Assembly (NCBI GenBank): GCA_963776985.1
Contig: CAVZOV010000002.1
Coordinates: 1,058,338 to 1,122,337 of the forward strand
Reading direction: 5' to 3'
Source of the DNA: an uncultured Solirubrobacterales bacterium
GTDB lineage: Bacteria; Actinomycetota; Thermoleophilia; Solirubrobacterales; Solirubrobacteraceae
DNA length: 64,000 nucleotides
The notes beneath the pieces are model-generated. The model was not told the DNA's origin. It saw only the letters and a program-made list of their open reading frames with translations, and did no database searches. Positions 22,097 through 49,690 of this stretch are shown piece after piece. The position numbers and the translations under genes are program-made. Positions within the stretch are counted from its first letter, which is position 1, and every line of letters begins with the position of its first letter.

Positions 22097-22127
22097 TCAC
22101 GAAAAGCCTGCAAAATCGTGGTTTCAT

Positions 22128-32567: not shown

Positions 32568-32761
32568 GCGAGCTGCCTGACGAGACTCTCGTACTCGTCG
32601 GCCAGCGGAGTGGCGCCTAGCGAGAGCAACATGGCGGAATGGCCGAGGGCGGCAAGTGCCTTGGGCGTGTTGAGCGGCAGCATCTCTTCGCCGGTGGCGA
32701 TGTAGAGCCCTGTCGGTCCATCGTAATCACTGAACTCGTCGTTCATTGTGTTCTTGCTCAT
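32555..32761 (-). CDS. hypothetical 68-aa acidic protein coupled to the Fic gene
   Basis: Its ATG overlaps the Fic stop (ATGA at 32758-32761). No family recognised. Confidence 0.5.
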   Translation of the reverse strand: MSKNTMNDEFSDYDGPTGLYIATGEEMLPLNTPKALAALGHSAMLLSLGATPLADEYESLVRQLAHAA

Positions 32762-33525: not shown

Positions 33526-33568
33526 CGCTCGAAGATACCCCGAGCACAAGACCTCATCCTGGGTGCCC

Positions 33569-34231
33569 TCAACCGAGCTTGTATGCCTCGGCGCGCTTGT
33601 AGAGCAGGGAGAGGAGGCGCTGATCGGTTGTGAGAGACGGTGTCCTTGACCCTGAGATGGTCAACGTCACTACGCCGCGCCCGGCGGCAAAGGCGAAGAA
33701 GTCCTGGTGTGTCTGCGCGGGCGTGCCGACGCCGTCCGTCGCGCGGAGTCCCATGCTCGGAGGCGCTACCGGAAGCGTGCTGAATGCCACCTTGAGTTCT
33801 GGCTGTGGCGGAAGGAGGCAGTGACGGTCGTGCGGATTGCCGAGAGCCGAGACATATGCCGCGGCGAAAGTCTCGCTCGACATCGCCGCGACGGTCGAGC
33901 GCGCCCACCAATACGCGCTGCCAAAGATGGGCGATTGAACCTTCATCAGCAGCTCGCCCGCTGGGAGGTGGGAGCAGCGCGGGAAAGGACCATGCTTGCG
34001 CTGGTACTTGACGACTTCAACGTATCTTTTGCTCGTCGTCCCCGGCAGATCAACAGCGCGCAGATTGACGGCGTGCGCGTAGGCGAGGGCTTGGGCGCTG
34101 GTGATCGGCGTGTCCGGGTCAAGGGCAGCGCCACTTGAGGACGCGGAGCTGCTTCCACATCCGGAGAGGATTGCTGTGCTCACGACGAGGGCAAGCATTG
34201 TGCTGGTGGGCCGACGCATCACTGGGATCAT
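33569..34231 (-). CDS. hypothetical lipoprotein (paralogue of 16846-17721)
   Basis: Signal peptide plus lipobox ILSGC|GSS. Start at ATG 34231 or 34219. Shares blocks with 16846-17721. Confidence 0.6.
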   Translation of the reverse strand: MIPVMRRPTSTMLALVVSTAILSGCGSSSASSSGAALDPDTPITSAQALAYAHAVNLRAVDLPGTTSKRYVEVVKYQRKHGPFPRCSHLPAGELLMKVQSPIFGSAYWWARSTVAAMSSETFAAAYVSALGNPHDRHCLLPPQPELKVAFSTLPVAPPSMGLRATDGVGTPAQTHQDFFAFAAGRGVVTLTISGSRTPSLTTDQRLLSLLYKRAEAYKLG

Positions 34232-34417
34232 CCCAAGCCGTTGGCTTGTCAGGCGTCCACGCTTGGCATCGATGCGGCGCTCACATGTGCGCAGGGTCAA
34301 ACAAAGTGCAAACATGCCCCACGCCATCCGACACCACGACGGTTTGCGCGAAAAGGCAGATCCCGCATAACAAAGCCAAAACGCCGACTCTACGACACCC
34401 TACGCCACGCCATGATG

Positions 34418-34463
34418 GGGTTGTGGTCTCGGCGGTCGCGGGTTCGAATCCCGTCGCTCACCC
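34418..34463. repeat. attR-like orphan copy of the tRNA-His 3' segment (46 bp, identical to 22051-22096)
   Basis: Exact 46/46 identity. No tRNA 5' half precedes it. Confidence 0.85.
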
Positions 34464-35592: not shown

Positions 35593-35992
35593 GTGCGGTC
35601 ATCCTATGAGGAGCAAGTCAGCAAGGGCCGTTGACGGCGTGCGCTCGGCGATTGTCAGAGACATTCTCCGCGAGCTGAGCCGCATGATTGCTGGCTTTAC
35701 GCGCTTCAAGCGTCTGCTCGGTTGCGCGATGGCGGCCGAATCGTCAAATTCGCCGCTCAACGGGTCCGAGCGGGCGGGACTGGCGGTGCGACCGGCGTTT
35801 TGCGAACTTCGACGGCATTCAGGCACGGAGTAGGAGACACGGCTCGACTTGAGCGCTCGAACCCATGAACCTCTGTGTGCGATGCGCGACCGAGACTGCG
35901 GGTTCGGCGACATCGCATTAGCAACCGGGTGCCGTGCCCGTGGGCCACGGAGTTCGGATCAACGTTGAATAGCACCGACCAGGCAGGGAAAC

Positions 35993-36988
35993 ATGGCTTC
36001 AACTAGCAGGACGCGTCCGATGAGGACGCGCTCAAGAGCGCAAACGCAGCCGGCAGAGCCGGACGCGTTGCCGCGCGGCCACGTAACTGAGATCCAGCGT
36101 GCCCGGATGCTTAGCGCGGCGGTCGAGGCGATCGAGGAAAACGGCTATGCACGACTCACGGTCGCGCAGGTGATCAACCGCGCAAAAGTCTCGCGCAAGA
36201 CGTTCTATGACTTGTTCGTCGATCGCGAGGACTGTTTTTTGGCCGTGTTCGAACGGACGCTTGAGCAGGTCAGGGCGAGGGTCATCGAAGCGTACGCACA
36301 GGAATCGTCGTGGCGTGAGGGTGTTCGGGCAGGCTTGGCGGCGCTGTTGATATTCATCGACGAGGAGCCTGAGCTTGCGCGGTTGTGCGTCGTGGATGCG
36401 CTCGGTGGAGGTCCGCGTGTACTGGAGATGCGTGCGCGCGTGCTTGCCGAATTGCGCTCGGTGATCGACGAAGGTCGCGGCGCCGCCACGACCAGACGCG
36501 AGCCTCCGAGCGTGACTGCCGAAGGCGTAATCGGTGCGGCATTTGCGGTGATCCACACACGTATGCTCGAACGCAGTTCCAAGCCCTACATCGGATTGCA
36601 CGGCCCACTCATGAGCATGATCGTGCTTCCCTACCTCGGGACGCGCGCGGCGAGTCGCGAACTGGCTCGCCCTGCACCACAGGTGCGCCGCCGCGCAAAG
36701 TCAGAGCGGGGTGTTGGCAAGGACCCGATGGCCGGGCTAGACATGCGCTTGACCTACCGGACCGTGCGTGTATTGAGTGCGATCAAGGAGCATCCACAGG
36801 CAAGCAACCGTGAAGTGGCAGACGGGGCTGGGATCGCCGACCAGGGCCAAATATCCAAGCTGCTGTCTCGCCTTGAGCGTCTCGACTTGATCGAAAACGT
36901 CGATCAGGCGCAGTCAAAGGGCGCGCCAAACGAATGGCGCTTGACGGCTCGCGGCGAGCGTGTCGAGAGGGCCACCAGACCGATGTAG
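35993..36988 (+). CDS. transcriptional regulator: TetR-type N-terminal HTH plus ligand-domain-sized middle, with a C-terminal MarR/ArsR-like winged helix
   Basis: TetR HTH: YARLTVAQVINRAKVSRKTFYDLFVDREDCF. C-terminal wHTH-like: LTYRTVRVLSAIKEHPQASNREVADGAGIADQGQISKLLSRLERLDLI. Confidence 0.65.
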   Translation: MASTSRTRPMRTRSRAQTQPAEPDALPRGHVTEIQRARMLSAAVEAIEENGYARLTVAQVINRAKVSRKTFYDLFVDREDCFLAVFERTLEQVRARVIEAYAQESSWREGVRAGLAALLIFIDEEPELARLCVVDALGGGPRVLEMRARVLAELRSVIDEGRGAATTRREPPSVTAEGVIGAAFAVIHTRMLERSSKPYIGLHGPLMSMIVLPYLGTRAASRELARPAPQVRRRAKSERGVGKDPMAGLDMRLTYRTVRVLSAIKEHPQASNREVADGAGIADQGQISKLLSRLERLDLIENVDQAQSKGAPNEWRLTARGERVERATRPM

Positions 36989-37024
36989 GAGCCATCTCGG
37001 GGTCGATACCCAACCGGCCTGTCC

Positions 37025-40000
37025 GTGCGGCGCGTCAGACAGCGCTTCGGATGGCCGTTGGCGGCCGTCCCGTCGCACACGCGCGGTCGGATCAGGGGGT
37101 GTGTATCAGAACCGGCGCCGCCGCACACAATCCCCCCATCCCGTCGACCGCTCGCAAGCCCAGCCTTGATTGCGACTCTCGCCACGACCGCGCTCGCGTC
37201 CGGGAGTGTCCTCGGGGCTGCGCTTGCGCTGTCCTGTGCGACCTCGACCACATGGCGCTTGAGGGCTCGTCGACGGCGACGCTACGTGCGTCTGAGCGTG
37301 GTCCCATACCGCGGCGACGATCCGACGGCTGAGGCGATCGTCAACATGTTCGAGGCGCTCCACAAGCGACTTCTGCGCCGCTGGTGGAGACGACTGCTCG
37401 ACGGCCAGCCGTCGATCGGTCTGGAGGTCCACTACGACCGCGAAGCATGGCTGTCGCTGACGTGTCCCGTCGGGCTGGAGTCGCTGGTCGAGGCCGCGCT
37501 GCGCAGCGCTTATACGAACTGCGTCGTGAGGTCAGCGACCCGTGAACCCGGGCCGCCTCCATGCGTGCTGCGCCTGAAGAAGCACGCTCCGTTCACCAAG
37601 CGAGCAAAGCGGATCGATCGCTTCGAGCACGATCGTGCGCCCGCCGTCAACCGCCTGATCACGACGATGGCGGCGTGTGCCTCGCCTGCGTTCGTGCAGA
37701 TTGCGTTGACGCCGACGCCAGCCCTCTTTGAGGGGCACTCCAAGCGTGCCTACAAGCGCCACGAGCACCATCTCTCGCGCGAGCGCAAGTTGCGCCTGCC
37801 GCCGCTCGACCGCTCGATGGTCGAGGACGAGGAGTTGAAGGGTGGCCTCGATGTGCAGCATCGTCCGCTGTTCTTCGCGGACATACGCATCGTGGGGCAG
37901 AGGCGGGAGGTGTGCGAGCGAATCGCCTCAGAGCTGCGTGCCGCATCCGCGGAGAACCGCATCGTGGAGCGCGGAACCCCCATCCGCCATGGCTGGCTGG
38001 GCCTGTACACGCGGCGGGTGCAGCGCGGCGAGGGTAACCCCTTGCCGTCGATTCGCAAGGGCGTCTTCGCCTCGACCGAGCTGGCGAGTATGTGGCACAT
38101 GCCCTCCGTCGACTACTCGACCGTGCCGTTCGCACGCAACCCACTGCCACTCGCACCCGCGCCGCCCGCGATCCTGCGTGTGCAGGAGGGAATCGGTGGC
38201 ACGCTGCGTGACATCTGCGGCCTCGTATCGATCCATCCTGGGCTGCGCCGCCAAAACACGGCTGTACCTGGGACCGTGGAGCAAGGCAAGTCGAGCTATC
38301 TCGTGGCGACGGTCGCCGAGGATCTACGGCGCGAGCGTTGCGCGGTGATTGTGCTCGACCCAAAGGGGGACGCGGCCGAGGCGGCGCTCAGCCTTGTGCC
38401 GCCCGAGCGCACGTGCACGCTGCTCGACTTCGCTCACCCCACATGCGGGTTCAACCCGCTGGCCGTGGATGCGCCGGCGGACACGATCGCCGACTACGTC
38501 GTCTCGGCGCTGAAGCATCTCTTCGATGATGGAGAAATCAAAGCCTCATCCGATCGCTATCTGCGCAACGCGATCATCGCGGTGCTGGCGTACGACCGTG
38601 CGAGCACGCTGTGGGACGCCGCACGGCTGCTGTCGGTGGGGGAGGAGGGCTATGCCTACCGCGCACGCGTGGCCGGACGACTGCGCACTCAGCCCGAGCT
38701 CAAGGAGATTTCAGAGTTTTTCACGGCGGAGCTTTCAGCTCAGCTGGCGGACGCGCGCGGTATGACCACAGCGAAGCTCGATGCCCCTGTCAACAAGCTT
38801 GCGCGGCTGCTCAACTCTCCCTCGATCAAGCGAGTGTTGCTGAACGATTCGTTGCAGGTCAGCTTCGACCGAGTGATCGAGGGTGCGGAGGTGCTCGTCG
38901 TGAAGGGCGCGCTTGGTGCGATGGGCGCTGGCAACACGAGCGTATTGATGCAATTGCTGATTGGAATGCTCGACGCGGCGCTCGCCCGCACTCAGGACGG
39001 GGTGGCGGCCGGGCAGCGCACGGCCGTCGCGCTGAAGGTGGACGAGGCTCCGCTCGTGCTCAACCGCGGCTTCGCCGAGACGATGGCGCTGAAGCGCTCC
39101 GCCGGCCTTGAGACGGTCGCCTGCTGGCAGACGGATTCCCAGTGGATCGATCGCGATGTACGCGCACAGCTCGACGCACTGTTCGCTCACCGCGTGTATT
39201 TCGCCACCGCCTCGGTGCGTGACGCGCGTGACGCGGCAAGCCTGACGATGGCGGAGTTCTCCGACACCGTACGTCCCGGCATCCGCAACCTGTCCGATCT
39301 TGGCCGTCCCGACGTGCGCTTGCATCTGCCGCGGCATAGCGCGATCGTCAGCTGGGTGACGCCCGAGGGGCGCCAGGCGCCATTCGTCGCGCACACGCTT
39401 CCGCTGCACATCGACGAGCAGCGGCTGGCACTGCACGCCTCCAGGCAGGTCGAGCGCGGAGGACGCTATCGCGAGGACCTCAGCCAGCCTCACTGGGAGC
39501 GCGAGACTAAATTGGACGGCGGCGACGCCGCAAAGTCGCCAGGGACCGAGCAAGCCCCACCGCCAAGCGGGTCGCCAACGATCGAGAAAGCCCTACCGCC
39601 AAGCGAAGCACTCCCGCCGACGGCGGCAGAGAGCTATCGCGAGCTGGTGGATCTCAGTGATGCCCAGAGCGTGCGTTGGGCCAAGAGCGCAAGCTCGCCG
39701 ACCACGCTCGACCCCGAACCGCTCGATATCGAGATACTTACGCTGATCGCCTCGATGCGGCACCTGCTGAGCAGCCAGATCCACCGTCGCTTCAACAGTG
39801 GTCGTGCCGCCACCACCACGCAACGTCGCCTCAAGCGTTTGTCGGACGCGGGCCTGGTGGCGCGCCTTCAGCTTCATCGCAAAGACGGCGGCGGCGTGCC
39901 GATGTGCTATTCGATCACACCCACAGGACTCGATCTTTGCGTCAAGCACGGCGGGTCGGCTATTAGGTCCATCGCGGGCGAGGAATTTCCCGGGAACGAC

Positions 40001-40762
40001 CCATCCCCTCCCCAATCCACTCCACGCAACGAAGAACGATTGCTGCAACAGGCCCGCCACGACGTTCGAGTAGCCGGCTGGGCACTGGCTGTGGAGGGCG
40101 CGCTTGCCAGCGGCCCGTGCGCATTGAGCGGTCCCGAGCATTCGCTCCTGACGCCGCCAACGCGCTCTAAGTCGGGTGAGCGGCGGATGGTGGGTCCCGT
40201 CGACCTATGTCTCCCGGGGGGTCGAACGCCCCACGGCTTCCTGCGCACGGTCGCCTCCGCTCAGAGAGTCGAGGTCGAGCACTTCCAGAGCGTGCGCCCC
40301 GATGCCACAGTGGCTCCCAGCGATGGGTACGAGCTGCTCGTCGAGCTTGACGATCGTCTGCCGGAGAATGCCGGTGCGGCAAAGCTCGAGCGCTACGACC
40401 ACTTTCTTGCCGGTTGGTCCACTGGGCTGCGACGCTATGCACGACCCGGAGCCGCGCTGCCGCTGGTGGTCTTCGTGTGTCGCGACCGGGCTCGCGCTCG
40501 CGAGTGCGCGCGCCGCGCCGACGGTGTGCTGACGGCCTGTAGGGCCTATGCCGGGGAGTATCCGTCGGACTGGGAGTACCCTGGCCGCGAACGGGTCGTG
40601 TTCGCGTCCGAGCGTGACGCACACGAGGGACTGCTGTGTGCTTGGGGTGTCGCTCGGCTGCCCCCTGAGGTGCGGGTCCCGGCTGCCTCAGGCGATCCCC
40701 GTGGGCGCGATCCGCTCGTAGAGTCGCGTGAGATCTGGAGCGGTCAATCGCCCCGAACGTGA
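37025..40762 (+). CDS. 1245-aa fusion: coupling-protein-like (TraD/VirD4- or HerA/FtsK-clade) P-loop ATPase plus a C-terminal Replic_Relax-like wHTH/nuclease-fold domain
   Basis: Walker A PGTVEQGKSS (about 38270-38296), Walker B ALKVDEAPLVL. C-terminal LTLIASMRHLLSSQIHRRF...RLKRLSDAGLVAR, then HD...RPDATV...LLVELDD...KLERYDHF, resembles the Replication-relaxation family as I recall it. GTG track start is uncertain. Confidence 0.6.
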   Translation: MRRVRQRFGWPLAAVPSHTRGRIRGCVSEPAPPHTIPPSRRPLASPALIATLATTALASGSVLGAALALSCATSTTWRLRARRRRRYVRLSVVPYRGDDPTAEAIVNMFEALHKRLLRRWWRRLLDGQPSIGLEVHYDREAWLSLTCPVGLESLVEAALRSAYTNCVVRSATREPGPPPCVLRLKKHAPFTKRAKRIDRFEHDRAPAVNRLITTMAACASPAFVQIALTPTPALFEGHSKRAYKRHEHHLSRERKLRLPPLDRSMVEDEELKGGLDVQHRPLFFADIRIVGQRREVCERIASELRAASAENRIVERGTPIRHGWLGLYTRRVQRGEGNPLPSIRKGVFASTELASMWHMPSVDYSTVPFARNPLPLAPAPPAILRVQEGIGGTLRDICGLVSIHPGLRRQNTAVPGTVEQGKSSYLVATVAEDLRRERCAVIVLDPKGDAAEAALSLVPPERTCTLLDFAHPTCGFNPLAVDAPADTIADYVVSALKHLFDDGEIKASSDRYLRNAIIAVLAYDRASTLWDAARLLSVGEEGYAYRARVAGRLRTQPELKEISEFFTAELSAQLADARGMTTAKLDAPVNKLARLLNSPSIKRVLLNDSLQVSFDRVIEGAEVLVVKGALGAMGAGNTSVLMQLLIGMLDAALARTQDGVAAGQRTAVALKVDEAPLVLNRGFAETMALKRSAGLETVACWQTDSQWIDRDVRAQLDALFAHRVYFATASVRDARDAASLTMAEFSDTVRPGIRNLSDLGRPDVRLHLPRHSAIVSWVTPEGRQAPFVAHTLPLHIDEQRLALHASRQVERGGRYREDLSQPHWERETKLDGGDAAKSPGTEQAPPPSGSPTIEKALPPSEALPPTAAESYRELVDLSDAQSVRWAKSASSPTTLDPEPLDIEILTLIASMRHLLSSQIHRRFNSGRAATTTQRRLKRLSDAGLVARLQLHRKDGGGVPMCYSITPTGLDLCVKHGGSAIRSIAGEEFPGNDPSPPQSTPRNEERLLQQARHDVRVAGWALAVEGALASGPCALSGPEHSLLTPPTRSKSGERRMVGPVDLCLPGGRTPHGFLRTVASAQRVEVEHFQSVRPDATVAPSDGYELLVELDDRLPENAGAAKLERYDHFLAGWSTGLRRYARPGAALPLVVFVCRDRARARECARRADGVLTACRAYAGEYPSDWEYPGRERVVFASERDAHEGLLCAWGVARLPPEVRVPAASGDPRGRDPLVESREIWSGQSPRT

Positions 40763-40936
40763 TGTTCCGCGAGAGTTTGGTGTGGGTCGAACGGGTCGCT
40801 TGCCGGTTGCCTGACATCGAGCGTCCGAGAGGAAAGGTTTGACAAAAATGCTTTGTTGCTGACAGCCCAAGCAATCCTATTTAGTTGAACATAGAGCGGT
40901 CATCGGAAACAATTTTGGAGGACTCCAGAGATTTTC

Positions 40937-40965
40937 TTGACACCGCAATGGGTGTGGCAAAGAAT
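40937..40965 (+). promoter_or_regulatory. sigma-70-like promoter motif TTGACA-N17-AAGAAT
   Basis: Perfect -35 hexamer, 17-nt spacer, 4/6 -10 hexamer. Lies in an ORF-free region. Confidence 0.35.
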
Positions 40966-41315
40966 GCGCGCCAGGCCCGTTCCGCGGGTCTGAATGACAC
41001 GGTTCTGGGACTTCTCTGACCAAGGACGGACGTCCCGAACCGGGCCAACCACCCCCGGAGGGCCGGCTGGCGTGGTCGCGCTGCCGGCGAAAACAACCCG
41101 GATAGGCTCGGCCTCCCAGTCGGTCCTTCAGACGGATGCCACAGCCCATTCGTGCGCGCTGGCGAGTGGTCCAGGGGGTCTGTATGCGCGGGCGCAATGA
41201 GTTCGGCGAAGGCCGCCTCGGGTGGATTGGTAGGTGTGATGTGTGTACCCGTAAGCGCAAGGCTGGAGCCAAACCGACAAGTCAGAGACAGGCTGATGGA
41301 ACTGTACGTATGGAT

Positions 41316-41344
41316 TTGACAATGCCCGAAGCGTTCGCGATGAT
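41316..41344 (+). promoter_or_regulatory. sigma-70-like promoter motif TTGACA-N17-GATGAT
   Basis: Perfect -35 hexamer, 17-nt spacer, 4/6 -10 hexamer. Lies in an ORF-free region. Confidence 0.35.
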
Positions 41345-41595
41345 GCGGCCGTCGTCAGCGCGCAGGCGGCATGGTCAGACCCGGGACGTCTCGCGGACTA
41401 GCGTCTCAGAGGCCGGCCAACCCTCACAGAGGGCCGACTGGGCGCGACCGTGACAGCCGGAGAAGGCCTCTCCTGGCTCCGGTCGCCGCCCCGGTCGGCC
41501 TGCCGGTCGATCTTTTTGGTAGGTAAACCGTGCCGCCGTCAGCCATCGCGGAATGCGGTTTCGGTTACCAGGTTGTTGACGTTGCCGTGTGTGCC

Positions 41596-41624
41596 TTGAC
41601 ACCTTTTCAACGCTGTGCAATTAT
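41596..41624 (+). promoter_or_regulatory. sigma-70-like promoter motif TTGACA-N17-AATTAT
   Basis: Perfect -35 hexamer, 17-nt spacer, 4/6 -10 hexamer. Lies in an ORF-free region. Confidence 0.35.
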
Positions 41625-41943
41625 CCCCTCTCGTCGAAGATACGGAATACAGATCGGAGCGCTGCCAATGGTTCGATCAGTCAACGTCAGACCTCGGTGT
41701 CTCCGGTGCTCGTCTAACCGAGTGTGAAGGAGTCAATACTTCCCAGGAACCGAATGGGCGGAGAAGGGAAGAGGGTTCGGATGCGCAGTCGCCCCCGCTG
41801 CGACCCCGAACAAGGCTCGGGCTGGCAGATGCGCCTCGTGCCGAGCACTGGGCCCGTGCGGTAGCGGCGGCATGACCTGAGCCGCGGTTGTCGCACGGGA
41901 CCCCCTATGGAGAGCGATCGGCCACGAGGCTGCGCTCGCGCTT

Positions 41944-42504
41944 CTACTGCTTGCACGCCTCGGCGTTCCACTCGATGCCGCTAAGCAGCACAGCTGGTCG
42001 GATGTCCAGCTTGAGTGCGAGCTTCAACACTGTGCGCAGGTTCGGTTCGCGCCGTCCGTTCTCATACACGCTGATCGCGGCGCGATCGACTTTGGCGTCA
42101 AGCGCAAGTCGCTCCTGGGAGATGCCGGTGCGCGCGCGAGCCCATTTTAGGTTGGCGCCGAATACCGCCGCCGGAGAACGGTCGGTGCGCTTGGCACGGC
42201 GCGGTCTGCTTCCTGGTGAGTCGCCCGCTCCTACGCCCCGCAGTAGATCGGTTGGTCTGACTCGCAGTGCCGCACATACCCGCAAGAGGGTCGGCATGTC
42301 CGGAGAGCGCTCGCCACACTCCATGCGACTGATTGCGGCCCGATCGATCGGGACGGGCGGTACCACCTGGGCTTCCGTGGCCGCTGACAGCTCGGCCTGC
42401 GTGTATCCCGCAAGTCCGCGCGCGCGTCGTAGGTTGGTACCAAACGCCCTGATCTGCTCGGAAATCTCCCCGCTGTCGGCTCCACCCATGAATACATAAT
42501 TCAC
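41944..42504 (-). CDS. XRE-family transcriptional regulator with two HTH_3 domains (paralogue of 10563-11060)
   Basis: FGTNLRRARGLAGYTQAELS... and FGANLKWARARTGISQERLALDAKVDRAAISVYENGRREPNLRTVLKLALKL. The second domain is near-identical in pattern to that of 10563-11060. Confidence 0.75.
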   Translation of the reverse strand: MNYVFMGGADSGEISEQIRAFGTNLRRARGLAGYTQAELSAATEAQVVPPVPIDRAAISRMECGERSPDMPTLLRVCAALRVRPTDLLRGVGAGDSPGSRPRRAKRTDRSPAAVFGANLKWARARTGISQERLALDAKVDRAAISVYENGRREPNLRTVLKLALKLDIRPAVLLSGIEWNAEACKQ

Positions 42505-42607
42505 GGCTGATTACAAAAGAGCCACTGAATAAACGCCACAACTACTTCCGGTCGACCATTTCGTGCTGTCGGTCGCGTTGCATCGGTCCAACCATCCGAC
42601 ATGGACC

Positions 42608-44098
42608 TCATCGGAGTAAGACTGGCCGTGGTTGGCGAAGGCGACCATATCGGCAGGAGTACTGGGGCGAGCGCTTGTGGACGGTCAGCGAACGCTCACG
42701 CCAACGAATGGCCGCAGCGCAACGTACTCGGCAACCTCGGTCAGGACGGGGGAGCTCGCGTGTCCGCTCGCTCACTACATACACGAAGCACAGCTCGACA
42801 AGGGCGTCGGCAGTGGCCTCCACCGCGATCGCCGTTGGGGGCTGATCGTTGGCGCTGAGTTCAAGTCCTGGCTCGAGCATCGCCGAGTAGGCACCTATCG
42901 CCTGATGGGCGGTGCTCGCCGCCTTGGGACTCGCCGTCAACGCGTCGATCAGTGCCAGATGTGCGTAGGCCGGCTCGGAGGCGAGGAACTCGAGCAGCGC
43001 GGCGATTCCCGCGCGCACGGCGGTCGGCCAGTCCTCCTGGGTTTCGTAGGCGCGCTCGACGATCCCCAGCGCCTTACGATGGCCGAGCTCGTAAGCCACG
43101 AGAAACGCGTCCTCCTTGCCGGAAAAGTGCTCGTAAAACGCTTGTACCGACACTGCCGCCTCCTGCACTATCTCGGGGATCGTGCTGGCGCCGTAGCCCT
43201 TCGCGGCCGATAGGTTCGCCAGTGCGTCGAGAATTCGCTCGCGCTGGTTGTGCACCACGAAGCTGCGCGAGACGTTGCCTTCGCCACGTGGCAATCCCCT
43301 GCGCTCGATCGCGCGCGAGCTGAGAGACAGCGTGCCCGGTGCCCGCCCACCGACTGGCACCGCTGCGCCACTGTCGCCGGTTGCCGGCTGTACCGGCATC
43401 GGGTTAGCGCCAAACTTGTAGCGGACCGCCCATCCGGCCACCTGCGGCGCGAGTGCCAGGAACTCGGCGCGTCGCGGTCGGCGTACGCGAGCGCCGCGTC
43501 GTGCCCTTGCGTACATGATCCGCAGGATCGCCCCGATGATGATTCTCGACAGCATCTCGCCATCGGCGGAACTCTCGCCAAGTGCCTCGCCGAGCGGACG
43601 CGCAAGCGCGTGCAACGTGCGCTCCCGCCGCTCGATGCCGGTCGGTCCCGCGGCCGTCAGCTCGACCGCGAGTACCCTCAGCGCCGCGGGGTTCTCTAGG
43701 GCCAGGTCGAACAGCTCGCCTACGAGCGCCTCGACCGTGCTGGAAGGATCGCCTGCACCTACTGTCCCGTCGGCGCTCGCTTCGTCGTTGTCCTCTGGCG
43801 TGCCGGTCGCCCGGTGAACCCGCTCCACCCATTCGTCTGCGATCTCGTCGCTGACGGCAAAGAAGCACGCTTGCTTGTCCTCAAAGTGCTCGTAGAAGGT
43901 CTTGCGCGACGCCACCGCCTTGGCGATCACATCGGCTACGACAGTCGCCGCGTAGCCCTGATCGCCCACGCTCGCGAGCATCGCCTGGACCATTCTGGCG
44001 CGGGGGTCAACCATGGCTTTCTTGCGCTTGCGTGCCTTTCGAGGTTCCCGTCGGCCGATTGGCGGCGGGTCGGCTGTAGGTTCGTCGGTCTTGTCCAC
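42608..44098 (-). CDS. duplicated TetR-family regulator (two complete TetR units in one 496-aa chain)
   Basis: Two TetR HTH blocks: YAATVVADVIAKAVASRKTFYEHFEDKQACF and YGASTIPEIVQEAAVSVQAFYEHFSGKEDAF. Each is followed by about 150-200 aa. Confidence 0.7.
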   Translation of the reverse strand: MDKTDEPTADPPPIGRREPRKARKRKKAMVDPRARMVQAMLASVGDQGYAATVVADVIAKAVASRKTFYEHFEDKQACFFAVSDEIADEWVERVHRATGTPEDNDEASADGTVGAGDPSSTVEALVGELFDLALENPAALRVLAVELTAAGPTGIERRERTLHALARPLGEALGESSADGEMLSRIIIGAILRIMYARARRGARVRRPRRAEFLALAPQVAGWAVRYKFGANPMPVQPATGDSGAAVPVGGRAPGTLSLSSRAIERRGLPRGEGNVSRSFVVHNQRERILDALANLSAAKGYGASTIPEIVQEAAVSVQAFYEHFSGKEDAFLVAYELGHRKALGIVERAYETQEDWPTAVRAGIAALLEFLASEPAYAHLALIDALTASPKAASTAHQAIGAYSAMLEPGLELSANDQPPTAIAVEATADALVELCFVYVVSERTRELPRPDRGCRVRCAAAIRWRERSLTVHKRSPQYSCRYGRLRQPRPVLLR

Positions 44099-44711
44099 TA
44101 ACCGACATTGTGACTACCAACGCCGATTGGTGCCAACTGCTCACTTTCGCGTCTAGCTCTTGTCAGGCGATTTTGAGCACAGTTTGACCTGGGAACGCCC
44201 ATAAATCTACCCTGTCTCACTGGCCGTAACCCCCTTTGTGTCTGCAGTTGCCCGCTCTATGCCCCGCGTCGGCCTGCAGTCGCCCGAGCATCGCGAATAA
44301 GGGCAACGGCGGCCGGCCGCCGGATTGTCGCCGCAATCGCCTGAGTTGCGTAGCGCAGTCGGGTACGTGTGCCTTCCTCGGCGCAAGCATGGCCTGTCAC
44401 GGGTGGCGTCTTTCCATGGATTGGCTAGGCTGGCCACCCCTTTCTTTCGCGTACCCACTGGCCGTATGCCCGGAACGGGCACCCATAGCTCGCTTCGGCG
44501 AGAGTCAGAGACAACCAATCTACGTCGCTGAGGTCTGCTCTGGCTGCCTACACGCACATTGGCGTTTGCGCTGGCGCCGAACCGGCTGTGCGCTAGATCC
44601 GCCACCCAGCTCCTGCTGTCTATCCGGTCCTCGCTCGGCCGATCTAGTCGATTCCCATCTGAGCGGATCCCGGCCAGCTTCCTCTTCTGCGTGCGGCCCG
44701 ATCGATGCCTT

Positions 44712-44744
44712 CCGAGACCCCCATAGGGGGGCTCGGAGTTTTCC
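44712..44744 (+). terminator. candidate intrinsic terminator hairpin
   Basis: CCGAGaCCCCC-ATA-GGGGGgCTCGG (5+5 bp around one mismatch) followed by AGTTTT. Lies in a 770-bp ORF-free region, 120 bp upstream of the next CDS. Confidence 0.4.
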
Positions 44745-44867
44745 ACTGATCCGCTTGCCGCTGCCCAGCGTCGCTTGACGGTTGCTCTGCGCGCGCCTAC
44801 AAGGCACGGCACACCGGCCAACCCGACAGCCGAGATATGCCGGGGTTTCGACCGCAAGGAGCGCACC

Positions 44868-45812
44868 ATGACAGCAGCACTGTTCTGCCCACCAGCCACC
44901 GCGCGTCGTTCGTCGTCGCATCGGGATGCCCAAGCGCGACGGCTTGCGCGATCTTCGACTTCGGCAAGCTGCGGTGAGGGAATCGTAATCGGACGTCCGC
45001 TCGCCGGTTACCTCGATGTCGAGGGTTGTGCGCGTGAGCTGCTTGCGGTTCCCGGTCATGCCGGCAGCACGCTTGTGCTCGACCGGGACGCCGCCACGCT
45101 CTGCGATCGTCGCCTAGTCGCCCATCTGGCCGCGGACGAGCCGCCCGAGAACGCCGAGATCGTCTGCCGCCATTACCTCGCGGACACGAATGGGCATTGG
45201 TGCCGACGCGTGCGACCCGAGGATCTAGAAAGCGTGCCGTTCGTCCACTCCGTCGCTCAGGCTGATGTCGAGGTTCCCGTCTTCGACGGGAAGGGCAACG
45301 CTTATCGTCTCGCGGCCCTCGCCGGTGAAGGATCTACACCCCAGCTGCGCTGGTGTATGCGTCGCGCCGACGCAGACGACGAAGACTGGGAGCAGACCGC
45401 TCTCCGCGACGTGGTGGCCGCGCTTGAGAGCTACGAACCAATGCGTAACCTCACCGAGCGCGCCGTCGCCTCCCGTCGACACGACCGCGGCGTACTCGTA
45501 ACACGCGTTTGCTACGAGCTAGAGCGTCTCTATGCGAGCCCCGTCATCCTCAACCGCGCGCTTCGCGAAGCCGTGCTCGACGCGATCGATCGCCACGGCA
45601 TGAGCATGAGCGAGATCGCGTTGCGCTGCGGGATCGTGAAGCACGACCGGCGTGGCAAGATCAGCGGCGAGACGAGCTGGCTCGCGCGACGCGTCGGGAT
45701 CATGCCCGAAGGCGGAGAGACCGAGATCACGCCGTGGGTTCACAGCGACGTGCTTGCGACGATCGCACGCAAGGGACTCGGCATCAGCCCACGCGAGGTC
45801 GAACTGCAGTGA
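44868..45812 (+). CDS. hypothetical protein (314 aa) with a possible C-terminal HTH
   Basis: AAGGAG lies 6 nt upstream of ATG 44868. The stop overlaps the next gene's start (GTGA). No family recognised; the C-terminal MSMSEIALRCGI segment is HTH-like. Confidence 0.55.
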   Translation: MTAALFCPPATARRSSSHRDAQARRLARSSTSASCGEGIVIGRPLAGYLDVEGCARELLAVPGHAGSTLVLDRDAATLCDRRLVAHLAADEPPENAEIVCRHYLADTNGHWCRRVRPEDLESVPFVHSVAQADVEVPVFDGKGNAYRLAALAGEGSTPQLRWCMRRADADDEDWEQTALRDVVAALESYEPMRNLTERAVASRRHDRGVLVTRVCYELERLYASPVILNRALREAVLDAIDRHGMSMSEIALRCGIVKHDRRGKISGETSWLARRVGIMPEGGETEITPWVHSDVLATIARKGLGISPREVELQ

Positions 45813-46561
45813 ACCGTGCCACCGTCCGAGCTGCTCGGCCCGCCGGTGCCGACCCGTGTCGGGCACGAATTCTCGTTGTCGAGTCAAACGCGCATGTCGG
45901 AGGCAAGCTCGTCGAGCGCCTTTGTGCCGACCGCTATCAAGCGATACTGGCCCGCACTCCCGGGCACGCTCGCACACTCGCGCGCGCCGAGCCGCTCCGG
46001 GCGATCGTGCTTTGCGCGCTCGACCCACCGCGCGTCGCGCTCGACATGCTTGAGGAGATTCGCAGCTCGGGCCGCGACTCGCACCATGCATCGGCTTGGG
46101 ATGAATGCCTGCCGGCGATCGTGATCAGTTCGCGCGCCGAGCAACTGGACATGCTGCGCGCGTTTGAGATGGGCGCGGACGACTTCATCGGCGGCAAGCA
46201 CTCCTATCTAGAGGTGCGCGCTCGTCTGGGGGCGGTACTGCGCCGCTCCGAGGGGCTCCCGGCCACGCGATTGTTGCGAGCTGGCCCGCTTGAGATCGAC
46301 ACGCGCGCGCACGTTGTGCTTGTCGGCGGCGTAACAGTTGAGTTGTGTCGCCTGGAGTATGAGCTGCTCGTCCATCTCGCTCGCAACCCCAGTGGCGTCT
46401 GCTCCAAGCGTGAGCTACTAAATGCGATCTGGCGCGAGCGTGCCGGCGCCGGCGCTCGGACGGTCGATAGTCACGCCAGTCGCCTGCGGCGCAAGCTCGA
46501 TACGGCAGGCGCACCCGGGCTCGTCGTAAACGTTTGGGGCGTCGGCTACCGCCTCACCTGA
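45809..46561 (+). CDS. OmpR/PhoB-type response-regulator-like protein with a degenerate receiver acidic pocket
   Basis: C-terminal winged helix LEYELLVHLARNPSGVCSKRELLNAIW...VDSHASRLRRKL...WGVGYRL. The receiver-like N-terminus has ILVVESN where DD is expected. GTG 45809 overlaps the upstream stop. Confidence 0.7.
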   Translation: MNRATVRAARPAGADPCRARILVVESNAHVGGKLVERLCADRYQAILARTPGHARTLARAEPLRAIVLCALDPPRVALDMLEEIRSSGRDSHHASAWDECLPAIVISSRAEQLDMLRAFEMGADDFIGGKHSYLEVRARLGAVLRRSEGLPATRLLRAGPLEIDTRAHVVLVGGVTVELCRLEYELLVHLARNPSGVCSKRELLNAIWRERAGAGARTVDSHASRLRRKLDTAGAPGLVVNVWGVGYRLT

Positions 46562-46740
46562 GCGATCCGCGAGCGCCATCTCGGCGGGATCGCAACCACT
46601 CACCAAGACGTGCAATAGCTCGATCTTGACGGGTCCCAGCGACCCGCCATGCCACACCTCAGCGGCGAGACCCAGCGGTCTCGCCGCTGCTCGTTAACCA
46701 CCACGACTGGCGCGAGCCGGTCTACAGAAAGGAGCGGCGC

Positions 46741-48393
46741 ATGCCGTCGTCCACTTACACCACCGAACCAGCGGTAAACCCGCTAGCGCCACTGGCCGAA
46801 CTGGCCGGCTGGCTGATCTCGACAACCCTGCACGTAGCGCTCGGCCTGCTCGTCGGCATGATCGCGGCTCGTGCGATGCGCGGACACCACCTGCGTTGGA
46901 CGTGGGCCGCGCCGGCGCTTGTGCCGGTTGTGCTCGACCCCACCATGTTCTCCGGGTTGGCCACGACGCTTGCCGCCGGCGGCGTGTGTGCCGCCATGCG
47001 TGGAAGGCGCTGGCACCGCGAAGACCTGATGGCCGGCGGCGATCTCGCCGAGATCGCATCGCGGCGGCGTGGCCCGCTCGATGCCCTGCGCACTCTCATA
47101 CAGGAGCTTAGGGCGCGCCTCGCCGCAGTGTCGCCGCCGACAGCACTGCGCGGGGGGCGCATGCCGATCGGACGCACCGAGTCGGGCGAGACGATGTCAA
47201 TCCCCTTCGGCGCGGGCGACGGCGGTAGACACACACTGATCGTCGGCGCCACCGGCTCGGGCAAGACTGTTACCGAGACATGGATTGTTGCCAGGGCGAT
47301 AGAAGCCGGCATGGCTGCTGTCGTGATCGATCCGAAGGGGGATGCTCGACTGCGCGAGCATCTAGAGGAGGCCGCTCGGGAAGTCGGTCGGCGGTTTCTT
47401 CAGTGGACTCCTTGGGGCCCGTCGGTCTACAACCCGTTCGGTCATGGCGAGGCCAGTGAGATCGCCGACAAGGCGCTTGCGGGAGAGCGTTTCACCGAGC
47501 CCCACTACCAGCGCCAGGCGCAGCGTTATCTTGGCTATGCGGTGCGTGCCTTGCGTGGCGCGGGCGTCGAGGTGAGCCTGCCGGCGCTCGTAGAGCAACT
47601 TGACCCCGAGAACCTGGCGGCGCTCTGTCTGAGTCTGCCCGAACCTCAGCAGGAGGTAACCGACGCCTATCTGAACTCGCTCACGCCGCGCCAGCGGACA
47701 GACCTGAGCGGGGTGCGCGATCGTCTGGCGATTGTGGTCGAGTCAGACGTTTCGCCATGGCTCGATCCGGCCACGGCGGGCGCGGACACGTTCGAGCTGC
47801 TCGGCGCTATCGAAGAACGCGCCGTCGTCTACTTCGATCTCAAAGCTGATGCCTGGCCGCTGTTGGCGCACATGCTGGGCGTGGCGATCGTTCAAGACCT
47901 ACAGACGACGATGGCGGCACTGCAGCACGCTCCGATTGCCACTGTCGTGGCAATCGACGAGTTCGCCGCGATCGCCGCCGGCCGGGTGGGGCATCTGTTC
48001 GGCCGAGCTCGCTCGGCCGGCATCAACCTACTGTTGGGCACGCAGGAGCTGTCGGACCTGCGTCCCGACGGACACCGGCAGCTGCAGGAGCAGGTGTTGG
48101 GCAACCTGGCCTCGCTGATCGTCCACCGTCAGGTTGTACCTGAGTCGAGCGAGCTTATCTCTCGACTCGCTGGCAACCGCGGGGTGTGGCGAACTTCGCA
48201 AAGCGACAAGGGTCGCTGGACGCGCACACGCACAAGCGCTCCGTTGCTTGCAGCCCAGGATGTCCGTGCCCTACCCACCGGCTGGGCCGCGGCGATCGAT
48301 CTGGGCGGGAGCGCGACGGTGCGCGTCGGCCAGGTCTTCTCCGCTGTAGCCAAGACGACGACAAGCAAGCCCACGATAAGGAGGTCAGCATGA
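46741..48393 (+). CDS. type IV coupling-protein-like (TraD/VirD4-type) membrane-anchored P-loop ATPase
   Basis: Two N-terminal TM helices, Walker A VGATGSGKT (about 47246-47269), Walker B VVAIDEFAAI, LLLGTQELSDL. SD AAAGGAG lies before ATG 46741. Confidence 0.7.
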   Translation: MPSSTYTTEPAVNPLAPLAELAGWLISTTLHVALGLLVGMIAARAMRGHHLRWTWAAPALVPVVLDPTMFSGLATTLAAGGVCAAMRGRRWHREDLMAGGDLAEIASRRRGPLDALRTLIQELRARLAAVSPPTALRGGRMPIGRTESGETMSIPFGAGDGGRHTLIVGATGSGKTVTETWIVARAIEAGMAAVVIDPKGDARLREHLEEAAREVGRRFLQWTPWGPSVYNPFGHGEASEIADKALAGERFTEPHYQRQAQRYLGYAVRALRGAGVEVSLPALVEQLDPENLAALCLSLPEPQQEVTDAYLNSLTPRQRTDLSGVRDRLAIVVESDVSPWLDPATAGADTFELLGAIEERAVVYFDLKADAWPLLAHMLGVAIVQDLQTTMAALQHAPIATVVAIDEFAAIAAGRVGHLFGRARSAGINLLLGTQELSDLRPDGHRQLQEQVLGNLASLIVHRQVVPESSELISRLAGNRGVWRTSQSDKGRWTRTRTSAPLLAAQDVRALPTGWAAAIDLGGSATVRVGQVFSAVAKTTTSKPTIRRSA

Positions 48394-49106
48394 GCAAGTC
48401 CACACACCCACCCACCCCCGAGCAAATCGAGTTGGTCCGCTGGGCAGCCTCGCTCGGGGCCGTCACAGCCGAGGCATTGGCTCACCGACGCGGCGTGAGC
48501 GTAGCTTCGGCTCGCGCTCGCCTGGGCGCCGCTCGACGCGCCGGTCTGCTCTCACGCGAGCGTCCGCTGACCGAGCATCCGGCGCTGTTCGGCGCCACGC
48601 GTGCGGGTCTGCGAGCGTGCGGGGCGCGTGGCATCGATACATGTCGCATCACGTCGAGCAACGCGCATCATCTGACCGTGTGCGCGGCGGTCGCCGCGGC
48701 GCTCGAGCGTTGCTACCCCGATCATCACGTCAGCGGCGAGCACGAGCTGCGTCGAGACGAGCGCGACCACGACGGTCCGCTCGCCAGCGCTCAGCTCGGC
48801 TGGTTGCACGCGCGGGGTACCGACAGGCACCGGCCCGATCTCGTGCTGTGGCCGAGTGTCGCCGCGCGGGAACGCCCGGTGGCCGTCGAGGTCGAGTTGA
48901 CGATCAAGGCGCCTCGGCGCCTCCGTGACATCTGTCGCGCCTGGGCTCGCAGCCAGACGGTTGCGGGCGTGCTGTATTTCGCGCCGCCGGATGTCGAGCG
49001 GGCGCTCTCGCGGGCGATCGAGCGTGCGCGCGCGTCGGAGCGCGTCGTCGTGCTGCCGCTGGATTGTCTTCTCGCTGTGGATGGCGGCACGGCGGGCATC
49101 GGCTGA
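48390..49106 (+). CDS. Replic_Relax-like protein (wHTH plus PD-(D/E)xK-like core)
   Basis: ATGA overlap with the ATPase gene and AAGGAGG SD. wHTH-like LVRWAASLGAVTAEALAHRRGVSVASARARLGAARRAGLL. HH...RPDLVLW...VAVEVELTIK core, similar in layout to the C-terminus of 37025-40762. Confidence 0.55.
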   Translation: MSKSTHPPTPEQIELVRWAASLGAVTAEALAHRRGVSVASARARLGAARRAGLLSRERPLTEHPALFGATRAGLRACGARGIDTCRITSSNAHHLTVCAAVAAALERCYPDHHVSGEHELRRDERDHDGPLASAQLGWLHARGTDRHRPDLVLWPSVAARERPVAVEVELTIKAPRRLRDICRAWARSQTVAGVLYFAPPDVERALSRAIERARASERVVVLPLDCLLAVDGGTAGIG

Positions 49107-49234
49107 ATTCGTGCACAACGAATTTAGCCCGTCAATCCGGGCTAAACGGGGTGTTTGGGCGTCTCTCGCCGAGAACCGTCCCAAGCGCCGCGTAGCTTCA
49201 ACGAGGGGGCGAGCCAACAGCAAAGGAGAAACCC

Positions 49235-49690
49235 ATGTCTTACTCAAGCATCAACCGAGTAGTGCTCGTCGGCCGTCTCACAAGCGATCCCGAGTTGCGC
49301 GCGCTGCCGTCGGGCACGAGCGTGTGCGCGCTGCGTATCGCCTGCAACACGACGCGCAAGACCAGCGAAGGCGAGTACACGGAGAAGCCCAACTTCTTCA
49401 ATGTCAGCGTTTTTGGTCCCGCCGGCGAGTCTGTCCACCGCTATATGAGCCGCGGTCGCCGGGTTGCCATCGACGGGCGCCTGGACTGGCGCGAGTGGGA
49501 AACGGCGGAGGGCTCAAAGCGACAAGCCGTCGAGGTCGTCGCCGAAAGCGTCCAGTTCCTTGATGGTCGCGGCGATCAGAACTCGCCCAACGGCTCCTCC
49601 GGTGAGGAGGACTCGGCCGATGGCGCCCTGGCGGAGGAGCGCGAGCTCGTCGGAGTGGGGTCGGGCATCGAGGACGACCTCGTCTTCTAG
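49235..49690 (+). CDS. ssb: single-stranded DNA-binding protein
   Basis: OB-fold N-terminus INRVVLVGRLTSDPELR...VAIDGRLDWREWE, Gly/Ser-rich linker, acidic tail EDDLVF. Confidence 0.9.
   Translation: MSYSSINRVVLVGRLTSDPELRALPSGTSVCALRIACNTTRKTSEGEYTEKPNFFNVSVFGPAGESVHRYMSRGRRVAIDGRLDWREWETAEGSKRQAVEVVAESVQFLDGRGDQNSPNGSSGEEDSADGALAEERELVGVGSGIEDDLVF

Follow-up and report, generated by a model that had tools for sequence, protein, structure and literature searches.

We analysed a 64-kb stretch of DNA (the window; all coordinates are positions within it unless a locus is named) with a GC content of ~65 %, whose host lineage, judged by the names of homologues and the titles of their records, is Solirubrobacterales (Thermoleophilia, Actinomycetota). 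Genes were called by the GC content of third codon positions (GC3), and domains were assigned by scans with Pfam and NCBIfam. Our subject is the gene cluster at 35993-49690, in which two ATPases resembling the coupling proteins of conjugation (T4CPs, for type IV coupling proteins) are each paired with a winged helix-turn-helix (wHTH) and nuclease module of the Replic_Relax type, once fused and once split over two genes. An original prediction made from this DNA had proposed this duplicated pairing, and the domain and profile matches bear it out; the eleven genes and regions it had listed were likewise all recovered, at the same positions, by the GC3 gene call and the Pfam and NCBIfam scans. 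We find that this module is a vertically inherited chromosomal core locus under purifying selection in a large clade of the Solirubrobacterales, and the comparisons reported here suggest that it was derived from conjugation genes. From left to right the cluster holds:

35993-36988 (+): regulator of 331 aa with TetR_N (Pfam, E 1.2e-10) and a C-terminal MarR-like wHTH (MarR_2, E 6.9e-6), here called TetR-wHTH
37025-40762 (+): fusion protein of 1245 aa, with Replic_Relax (PF13814) at aa 905-1129
40763-41943: stretch of 1.18 kb without a coding-type open reading frame (ORF) by the GC3 criterion
41944-42504 (-): dual-HTH regulator of the XRE family, 186 aa, with two HTH_3 stretches (E 4.6e-22)
42608-44098 (-): double TetR regulator of 496 aa, with two TetR_N stretches (E 1e-19)
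44099-44867: gap of 0.77 kb without a coding-type ORF by the GC3 criterion
44868-45812 (+): u345, a 314-aa protein with no assigned fold or function, its start set from an invariant Met and database entry P0121
about 45860-46561 (+): OmpR-type regulator with a degenerate receiver, start approximate (Trans_reg_C, E 2.2e-18)
46741-48393 (+): membrane-anchored VirD4/TraD/TrwB-type T4CP of 550 aa, matched by three T4CP families of Pfam
48387-49106 (+): divergent Replic_Relax/MOBC-like protein of 239 aa with putative wHTH and PD-(D/E)XK parts, here called RR-like
49235-49690 (+): single-stranded DNA-binding protein (SSB) with an acidic C-terminal tip (…EDDLVF; PF00436, E 1.1e-31)

The TetR-wHTH gene ends 36 nt before the start of the fusion gene on the same strand, and the start of the RR-like gene overlaps the stop codon of the T4CP gene. 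Core genes follow directly after the SSB gene, namely two MaoC-type dehydratases (MaoC1 and MaoC2) and then hrcA, dnaJ, yqeY, phoH, ybeY, era and trpEGDC; the GC3 of the module genes (0.72-0.77) is slightly lower than that of these flanking core genes (0.78-0.83). For the OmpR-type regulator of the window Pfam gave no Response_reg match, and a full-length PhoB alignment (NCBIfam) stayed below threshold. The orthologue in the distant syntenic locus L112 (14689-15405) has an intact Response_reg domain. A receiver that is unrecognised in the window copy and intact in L112 suggests a progressive loss of phospho-control.

To place the cluster among its relatives we scanned one genome per species with a pattern search seeded on the fusion protein, which yielded 79 species-level loci, almost all of them in metagenome-assembled genomes of Solirubrobacterales; neighbouring genes were located by tblastn of all window proteins, and retention was counted in the 58 loci that have both 10-kb flanks (full loci). 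The recurrent order is TetR-wHTH, fusion, u345, OmpR type, T4CP, RR-like, SSB, MaoC1, MaoC2, hrcA and dnaJ. Of the genes around the fusion gene, u345 is retained most consistently (57/58 full loci), followed by the T4CP and SSB genes (55/58 each), the OmpR-type and MaoC1 genes (54/58 each) and the RR-like gene (53/58), and a TetR-wHTH orthologue lies upstream of the fusion gene in 47/58. The paired architecture is therefore conserved in other genomes, with the T4CP and RR-like genes standing beside the fusion gene in nearly all full loci. The T4CP gene, alone or along with other parts, is lost from three species (L041, L044 and L065). Five loci have the T4CP block in inverted orientation yet adjacent; in L020 and L025 only the segment from u345 to SSB is inverted, the SSB gene moving along with the block from u345 to RR-like. 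The XRE and double TetR genes form a lineage-specific insert confined to the subclade nearest the window, and the XRE gene lies downstream of the fusion gene, as it does in the window, in ~30 of the 79 loci (the 36 tblastn matches include weaker upstream paralogues). This synteny persists down to 46-52 % identity (L074, L078, L111 and L112).

Moreover, the module has diverged together with its neighbours. Matrices of pairwise distance for the module proteins correlate with that of HrcA at a Mantel r of 0.84-0.92, the value for a MaoC1-HrcA control being 0.80, and in comparison with L001 dS is 0.29-0.41 for the module genes and 0.26-0.36 for the MaoC genes. In the same comparison dN/dS is 0.11 for the fusion gene, 0.10 for T4CP, 0.11 for RR-like, 0.17 for u345 and 0.15 for the OmpR type; two further dN/dS values (TetR-wHTH against L037 and fusion against L002) were discarded as artefacts of orthologue or frame extraction. 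In dozens of species all ORFs are intact. Taken together these observations identify the module as a core locus of the chromosome, inherited vertically and held under purifying selection. The original prediction had read the cluster as a plasmid-like module or one like an integrative and conjugative element (ICE), and had set beforehand synteny across the lineage as the finding that refutes a mobile element; because that synteny is what we observe, along with purifying selection and no flanking repeats, we reject the mobile-element reading.

The borders of the cluster tell the same story. The original prediction had placed it right after a tRNA-His island, and indeed the island ends 1.5 kb before the module, the interval holding a glutathione S-transferase fragment and a PAP2 gene. 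The tRNA-His gene lies at 22023-22096, and its last 46 nt are repeated exactly (22051-22096 = 34418-34463); the island so bounded, 22051-34463, carries transposases of the IS66, IS630, IS481 and IS4 types, a GNAT protein, a tyrosine integrase (31236-32567) and a Fic protein (32758-33549). Words from the 3' end of the tRNA-His gene recur at 34418-34463 only, with none near 49.7 kb, and the two borders of the module share no common word of 11 nt or longer. A sub-threshold 'tmRNA' match of Rfam at 34380-34455 is the tRNA-His fragment at attR. Within 35993-49690 neither Pfam nor NCBIfam detected a recombinase, an excisionase or a Rep protein. Hence the earlier claim that there is no integrase is right for the module itself, but not for its surroundings, where the tyrosine integrase at 31236-32567 belongs to the separate neighbouring island, since it lies within the bounds of the 46-bp repeat. 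Elsewhere in the window a low-GC stretch at 11656-15655 (-), with 54-59 % GC against ~66 % and a strong AT skew, lies just upstream of tRNA-Trp; it contains two large ORFs of 532 and 537 aa without a Pfam match and looks like another foreign insert. Adjoining it at 10563-11060 (+) is a second dual-HTH XRE regulator, of 165 aa, which has two HTH_3 stretches as does the protein at 41944-42504 and is possibly its paralogue.

At the centre of the module stands the fusion protein (37025-40762), which can be divided as follows:

aa ~43-75, nt 37151-37249 (+): N-terminal hydrophobic anchor
aa 78-335, nt 37256-38029 (+): conserved N-domain
aa 336-830, nt 38030-39514 (+): T4CP-like nucleoside triphosphatase (NTPase)
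between the NTPase and the C-terminal domain (+): variable, poorly conserved linker
aa ~900-1245, nt 39722-40759 (+): Replic_Relax/MOBC-type wHTH and PD-(D/E)XK domain

The match to PF13814 scores 48.5 bits (cut-off 25.3, E 1.4e-12), and the domain keeps the residues H…PD…E-x-D. More than 1000 homologues of the fusion protein were found, the best 120 of which are 64-91 % identical over nearly the full length, and PF13814 is present in 120/120 homologues listed. The NTPase motifs, comprising Walker A (GxxxQGKS), DPKGD, Walker B (LKVDEAP) and CWQTD, are each at least 95 % conserved. A hydropathy scan, the sole basis here and below for calling transmembrane (TM) segments, found a strong N-terminal TM-like segment in 52/53 orthologues and a weaker one in the window copy. 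For the NTPase itself no T4CP family of Pfam matched the fusion protein, and among the NCBIfam models there was a TraD match to Walker A only; an hhalign comparison with the 550-aa T4CP runs through all the NTPase motifs, at a weak E of 1.7e-3. The AlphaFold model has a pLDDT of 53 overall, with only its C-terminal third confident, and the top PDB matches that Foldseek returned for this low-confidence model are DotL (6sz9_A, E 2.6e-5) and TrwB (1e9s, E 4.9e-4), complexes of HerA (SIR2-HerA and HerA-DUF4297) ranking below them; the wHTH matched 4a5n and 3r0a. Combined, these comparisons point weakly to a coupling-protein-like NTPase.

The 550-aa protein is more readily classed as a T4CP. It matches TrwB_AAD_bind (1.2e-11), TraG-D_C (1.8e-9) and T4SS-DNA_transf (3.4e-7) in Pfam, all above cut-off, as well as SXT_TraD (6e-26) in NCBIfam, and 53/57 orthologues have TM-like segments at the N-terminus, mostly one or two. 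HerA and FtsK models (Pfam, NCBIfam) match it weakly; FtsK_SpoIIIE reaches 19.4 bits (cut-off 24) over 25 residues around the P-loop, and has no Pfam match on the fusion protein. An actinomycete ICE (AICE), with double-stranded DNA transfer of the FtsK/TraB type, was considered and rejected on these FtsK_SpoIIIE results. The original prediction had likewise seen neither a VirB-type channel nor an FtsK/TraB-type translocase, and we too found none in the window.

The RR-like protein, which follows the T4CP, is far more divergent. The window protein has no PF13814 match of its own, and 9/57 orthologues reach the family, at E values of at least 8e-4; the MobC replication-relaxation subfamily of NCBIfam is matched at E 1e-3, and hhalign aligns the wHTH with the C-terminus of the fusion protein at E 2.7e-6. 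Its invariant residues are H95, P150-D151, E168-x-E170 and K174. By these profile comparisons RR-like is probably a divergent member of the same kind of family as the Replic_Relax domain of the fusion protein. Profile searches with RR-like and u345 against PDB sequences gave nothing at E<=1. As for u345, 0 of its 1620 homologues have a Pfam domain, its AlphaFold2 model (pLDDT 67) is rich in beta structure in the N half and helical in the C half, Foldseek found no meaningful match to this model in PDB or BFVD, and hhalign against the other module proteins gave nothing.

Previous studies bear directly on what the Replic_Relax domains might do. PF13814 stands for the MOBC relaxase superfamily in CONJscan-based work (PMC5357655 Table 1), and MOBC relaxases, such as TraX of pAD1 and MobC of CloDF13, are kin of PD-(D/E)XK restriction endonucleases, carry an N-terminal wHTH and have had no covalent DNA intermediate detected (PMC12857230, a 2025 review); the assignment of Replic_Relax to the PD-(D/E)XK fold traces to PMC3424549. 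The statement in the original prediction that the cluster has no recognisable relaxase is therefore wrong, as PF13814 is the MOBC relaxase family and the fusion protein scores well above its cut-off, and the proposal made there that the Replic_Relax protein acts as the DNA-processing enzyme agrees with this literature.

Additional support for an origin in conjugation comes through distant relatives of the fusion protein. An exhaustive search gave 303 clusters of 50 %-identity representatives at E<=1e-30, and all three regions of the fusion were kept in 33/39 long representatives, down to 25-30 % identity. Metagenome loci were fetched with a 6-sequence alignment of distant fusions, a 22-sequence alignment being too diverse. 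In these relatives (L082-L103) the fusion gene comes last, after genes for TcpC (VirB8-like), TcpE (VirB3-like), a VirB4-type AAA_10 ATPase, a VirB6-sized protein and an SLT/NlpC-P60 hydrolase, a set that by its gene content is a type IV secretion system (T4SS) of the Gram-positive type. The cultured Conexibacter sp. JD483 (GCA_030646195.1, JAUTDM010000012.1; L110 248-14248) has a T4SS arrangement like that of the metagenome loci and a fusion that is 43 % identical, its cluster, of the Gram-positive type and seemingly complete, comprising TcpC, a VirB4-like AAA_10 ATPase, an 867-aa protein, an SLT/M15 hydrolase, a 157-aa protein and a T4CP-Replic_Relax fusion of 1415 aa. On the Desulfosporosinus plasmid pDESACI.01 an SLT gene is followed by the gene for a 1046-aa homologue and then by a separate replication-relaxation gene. 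In L083 (3599-6340) and in L096 and L103 (both 6951-9455) a second paralogue of the N-domain and NTPase, 834-913 aa long and without Replic_Relax, lies just ahead of the fusion gene; having two coupling-type ATPases in one system is therefore a trait that the chromosomal module shares with some T4SS-linked clusters. Genes for VirB4, TcpC, TcpE, VirB6-like proteins and the hydrolases were found neither in the 64-kb window nor within 10 kb in the 79 loci.

We built trees by neighbour joining (NJ) only, which on sequences this divergent is weak evidence. In the bootstrapped tree of the fusion N-domain and NTPase the copies at the hrcA locus and the Conexibacter copy form one clade in 188/200 replicates, and the other T4SS-linked copies fall outside it. 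This clade, together with the T4SS-linked relatives, suggests that the ancestors of the chromosomal form were coupling/relaxase fusions associated with T4SSs in the same order. A single clean one-way domestication was not upheld, as the Conexibacter copy, which is linked to a T4SS, falls among the chromosomal copies; the NJ tree may fit a single domestication, repeated ones, or a gene that a T4SS element later took back.

The cluster also contains conserved non-coding elements. The original prediction had described two regions as ORF-free, and neither holds an ORF of coding-type GC3; the first, of 1.2 kb, is however not empty, as it contains a conserved promoter and a structured RNA candidate. 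The elements in this region and in front of the T4CP gene are:

41316-41344 (+): sigma-70-type promoter, with TTGACA at 41316-41321, a 17-nt spacer and GATGAT at 41339-41344; GGATTTGACA is invariant in 18 aligned loci
41350-41505 (+): candidate structured non-coding RNA of ~155 nt, lying in the 1.2-kb stretch without ORFs
46624-46737 (+): 5' region of the T4CP gene, kept across nearly all syntenic loci
46624-46630 (+): promoter-like TCTTGAC
46660-46672 and 46677-46689 (+): arms of hairpin 1, perfect over 13 nt in the window, with a co-varying stem of ~11 bp
46691-46699 (+): invariant TCGTTAACC, one base after hairpin 1
~46705-46710 and 46718-46723 (+): arms of hairpin 2 (GACTGG and CCGGTC), imperfect in the window, co-varying
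46727-46734 (+): ribosome-binding site GAAAGGAG of the T4CP gene

Aligned loci conserve the -10 element of the promoter at 41316-41344 as nATnAT. Besides the window copy, nhmmer found the RNA candidate in 28 loci, in every case on the strand of the fusion gene and downstream of it, and it is confined to the subclade that carries the XRE and double TetR genes. It is far better conserved than its flanks, being 97.6 % identical to the L002 sequence when neighbouring proteins are ~85 % identical. RNAalifold predicts 47 pairs, 10 of them with compensatory changes; 97.8 % of alignment cells are paired, the 10 double changes compare with 3.8 in shuffles (0/500), and controls slid along the alignment are 30-52 % paired. 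No Rfam family matched the candidate at E<=1 (34-50.5 kb was scanned, and the sole match was the sub-threshold tmRNA at attR). We propose 41350-41505 as a candidate for a new structured RNA. In L012 (13794-13890), L069 (3265-3349), L006 (13740-13824) and L048 (13923-14034) the 3' half of the RNA model has a second, weak match ~200 nt upstream of the main copy (nhmmer E 1e-4 to 7e-4), and window positions 40900-41130 are also conserved; the second matches may be a related tandem element.

In the 5' region of the T4CP gene the alignments show compensatory changes in 9/16 pairs. The TCGTTAACC motif is unique in the window and is found upstream of T4CP in at least 37/57 loci; near the fusion gene it does not recur consistently. 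Of the local repeats found by scanning between the genes, all but the 13-nt inverted repeat upstream of T4CP are short and at chance level. In an origin of transfer (oriT) the nic region usually has a hairpin beside a short invariant motif, a layout known from HUH relaxases that may not hold for MOBC. The hairpin and TCGTTAACC are thus a candidate for an oriT-like nic region, and are explained equally well as an element of the 5' untranslated region (a leader RNA) or as a terminator. Three further blocks are conserved near gene starts, at 44099-44170 directly upstream of the double TetR start (83-93 % identical in >20 loci), at 35654-35992 upstream of the TetR-wHTH gene (its core, 35828-35875, being ~90 % identical even in distant loci), and at 49107-49234 upstream of ssb (78-90 % in 28 loci); these are probably operators, promoters or leaders.

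It is established that T4CPs, anchored in the membrane, are hexamers with DNA-dependent NTPase activity to which the relaxase is delivered together with its DNA, and that MOBC relaxases are nicking enzymes of the PD-(D/E)XK kind guided by their wHTH. Applied to proteins whose motifs are intact, this knowledge suggests that the cluster encodes two membrane-bound units that would bind, nick and pump DNA. The first would be a single 1245-aa protein combining a membrane anchor, a coupling-type hexameric NTPase and a MOBC-type wHTH and PD-(D/E)XK nicking domain, the activities being predicted; the second would be a split form, in which a two-TM VirD4/TraD-like T4CP and a translationally coupled MOBC-like protein are followed by an SSB. 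Both appear to be embedded among dedicated regulators, the TetR-wHTH protein and the atypical OmpR type throughout and, in one subclade, also the XRE and double TetR proteins and the RNA candidate, together with u345. With a slight leaning in its favour, we consider the cluster to be a domesticated, T4SS-less DNA-translocation locus derived from conjugation and kept by the host, and no active plasmid, ICE or integrative and mobilisable element (IME). In such a locus the MOBC-like wHTH would bind a specific chromosomal site, for which the hairpin and TCGTTAACC upstream of T4CP are the candidate, the PD-(D/E)XK domain would nick the DNA, the membrane-anchored ATPase ring would pump the strand at or through the cytoplasmic membrane, and SSB would coat the single strand. 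Since no channel genes are linked to the module, an envelope channel would either be supplied in trans by T4SS elements circulating in the order or be dispensed with, and the outcome could be donation of chromosomal DNA, release of DNA, uptake, or the handling of incoming DNA. At present we infer all of the biochemical activities, the DNA substrate and the biological role from sequence.

Several points weigh against a domesticated translocation locus. The assignment of the fusion NTPase to the T4CPs leans on motifs and on weak Foldseek and hhalign scores, with a model of pLDDT 53, and the membership of RR-like in PF13814 is weak. An ATPase with a PD-(D/E)XK nuclease is also a common layout in defence, HerA is among the structural matches, and the T4CP is matched by the PADLOC model mad8 (E 4e-16). 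In an NJ tree of divergent sequences the chromosomal clade encloses the T4SS-linked copy of Conexibacter. Furthermore, the search for T4SS genes covered the window and the 10-kb flanks, and the genome sample was seeded on the fusion protein, such that the counts apply to carriers of the module and not to prevalence across the order.

How the host might use the locus can be put forward tentatively: a host-controlled donation or export of the chromosome by a fixed, channel-less set of relaxase, T4CP and SSB, in which DNA would be nicked at the hairpin and TCGTTAACC and the strand handed to resident T4SSs or passed directly across the membrane, strikes us as possible, if rather doubtful. Unlikely in our judgement is a function in conflict or defence, where a membrane NTPase and a wHTH-directed PD-(D/E)XK nuclease would sense and degrade incoming conjugative single-stranded DNA or phage DNA, making the module an exclusion or immunity device derived from conjugation. 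The recurrent layout of such systems, the SIR2-HerA and HerA-DUF4297 structures among the matches of the fusion protein, and the matches of mad8 (E 4.3e-16) and weak HerA models to the 550-aa ATPase would all fit; a membrane location would suit the interception of entering DNA, and a possible target exists in the T4SS elements that circulate in the order and whose coupling/relaxase fusions are close relatives. However, coupling proteins outrank HerA among the structural matches, and comparison with PADLOC-DB 2.0 gave no complete system, no other component of MADS and no match for the nuclease-type proteins. Such systems are moreover usually patchy and found in variable islands, whereas the module keeps a fixed, syntenic place and has evolved in the manner of the housekeeping genes beside it, and a dedicated SSB is not a usual component of them.

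We regard as quite unlikely a housekeeping machine of repair or segregation analogous to HerA-NurA or FtsK, in which the translocase would feed DNA ends or termini to the nuclease, with SSB, during repair, division or development. The core-genome behaviour and strong purifying selection would agree with it, as would the weak HerA and FtsK matches of the 550-aa ATPase, the adjacent SSB gene that moves with the block, and the stress genes hrcA and dnaJ adjoining the cluster; yet TrwB_AAD_bind and TraG-D_C score above cut-off and FtsK_SpoIIIE below, the partner nuclease is a relaxase-type Replic_Relax with a sequence-specific wHTH rather than NurA, the unit of T4CP and RR-like is dispensable, having been lost in L041, L044 and L065, and the relatives sit in T4SS clusters. 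Very improbable is an IME or ICE remnant that still moves and always inserts beside MaoC and hrcA. CONJscan logic would type a relaxase and T4CP without VirB4 as 'mobilisable' (PMC3158045), the module adjoins the IS-rich tRNA-His island and its GC3 is slightly lower than that of the flanking core genes, but there is no integrase, excisionase or Rep inside it and no direct repeat at its borders, its site is the same in 53-57/58 species, its dS equals that of the flanks, its distances track HrcA, and its internal content varies only by the lineage-specific insert of regulators. That the cluster is a decaying, functionless remnant of an ancient integrated conjugative element is hardly credible, for although the T4SS genes that accompany its relatives are gone and the OmpR-type receiver is degenerate in the window genome, the ORFs are intact in dozens of species with dN/dS of 0.10-0.17, the catalytic and NTP-binding residues are invariant or nearly so, and the locus is conserved with synteny down to 45-50 % identity.

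The domesticated translocation locus that we favour is assembled from known parts. T4CPs and the MOBC/Replic_Relax family are known, and their pair is a known mobilisation module, found in CloDF13 as MobB (T4CP-like) and MobC (MOBC), the MOBC prototype being TraX of pAD1; as here, a coupling ATPase gene lies beside a PF13814 gene with wHTH and PD-(D/E)XK (PMC12857230, PMC5357655, PMC3357382). The CloDF13 and pAD1 modules are plasmid-borne and use a helper T4SS, whereas the module described here is chromosomal, fixed across species and duplicated (once in fused form) with no T4SS nearby, and its small MOBC-like protein is very divergent in comparison. The T4SS-linked fusions of Conexibacter JD483 and L082-L103 and the split form of pDESACI.01 are homologous to ours over all three regions at 25-43 % identity; unlike here, those fusions are the terminal gene of TcpC/TcpE/VirB4/VirB6-like/hydrolase clusters, and the T4SS-linked loci are without the u345, OmpR-type, second T4CP, RR-like and SSB genes and the hrcA neighbourhood. 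Similar to our module, the 'DNA translocation operon' of Bacillus phage 0305phi8-36 (MobC-like orf200 and VirD4-like orf201) lies outside a conjugative element and has no T4SS, but it is phage-borne and non-essential and its orf201 has no TM helices (PMC3357382), in contrast to the two anchored ATPases of a host core locus. The chromosomal T4SS of Patescibacteria is also derived from conjugation, fixed lineage-wide and interpreted as co-opted for a non-conjugative role; it is the nearest precedent in concept and a mirror image of what we observe, as there the channel (VirB4 etc.) is kept and the relaxase is mostly absent, and here a relaxase-type protein and T4CP remain at a locus that lacks the channel (PMC12102498). 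HerA-nuclease systems, whether HerA-NurA in repair or SIR2-HerA and DUF4297-HerA in defence, share with the module a hexameric NTPase of the FtsK/HerA superfamily and a nuclease partner, and differ from it in that T4CP domains and structures score better here, the nuclease is Replic_Relax with a wHTH and the distribution is core rather than patchy. The view of the original prediction that this is no described system thus needs dividing: the pair of T4CP and MOBC has been described (mobB/mobC of CloDF13, orf200/201 of phage 0305phi8-36, PMC3357382), but in the searchable literature we found no description of the T4CP-MOBC fusion family as such, nor of a duplicated form that lacks a T4SS and has become fixed at a core chromosomal locus throughout a lineage.

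As a rule, genes of conjugation are taken as a sign of mobile DNA, and automated pipelines would type this locus as 'mobilisable'. Here, however, a module of relaxase-type protein and T4CP behaves as a set of host genes, fixed, co-diverging with the host and under strong purifying selection in dozens of species, with the channel missing at the locus. Our analysis also defines a widespread T4CP-MOBC fusion family, the terminal gene of T4SS clusters in high-GC Gram-positive bacteria, as well as the u345 family and the RNA candidate, and the cluster of the cultured Conexibacter JD483 offers a tractable entry point for experiments on the fusion family. Should the module serve to keep incoming DNA out, conjugation parts would here have given rise to a new type of defence. 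Should it instead export or donate chromosomal DNA, an abundant and little-studied soil lineage would possess a host-encoded, vertically inherited route of gene exchange, in which domesticated transfer mobilises the chromosome rather than a selfish element.

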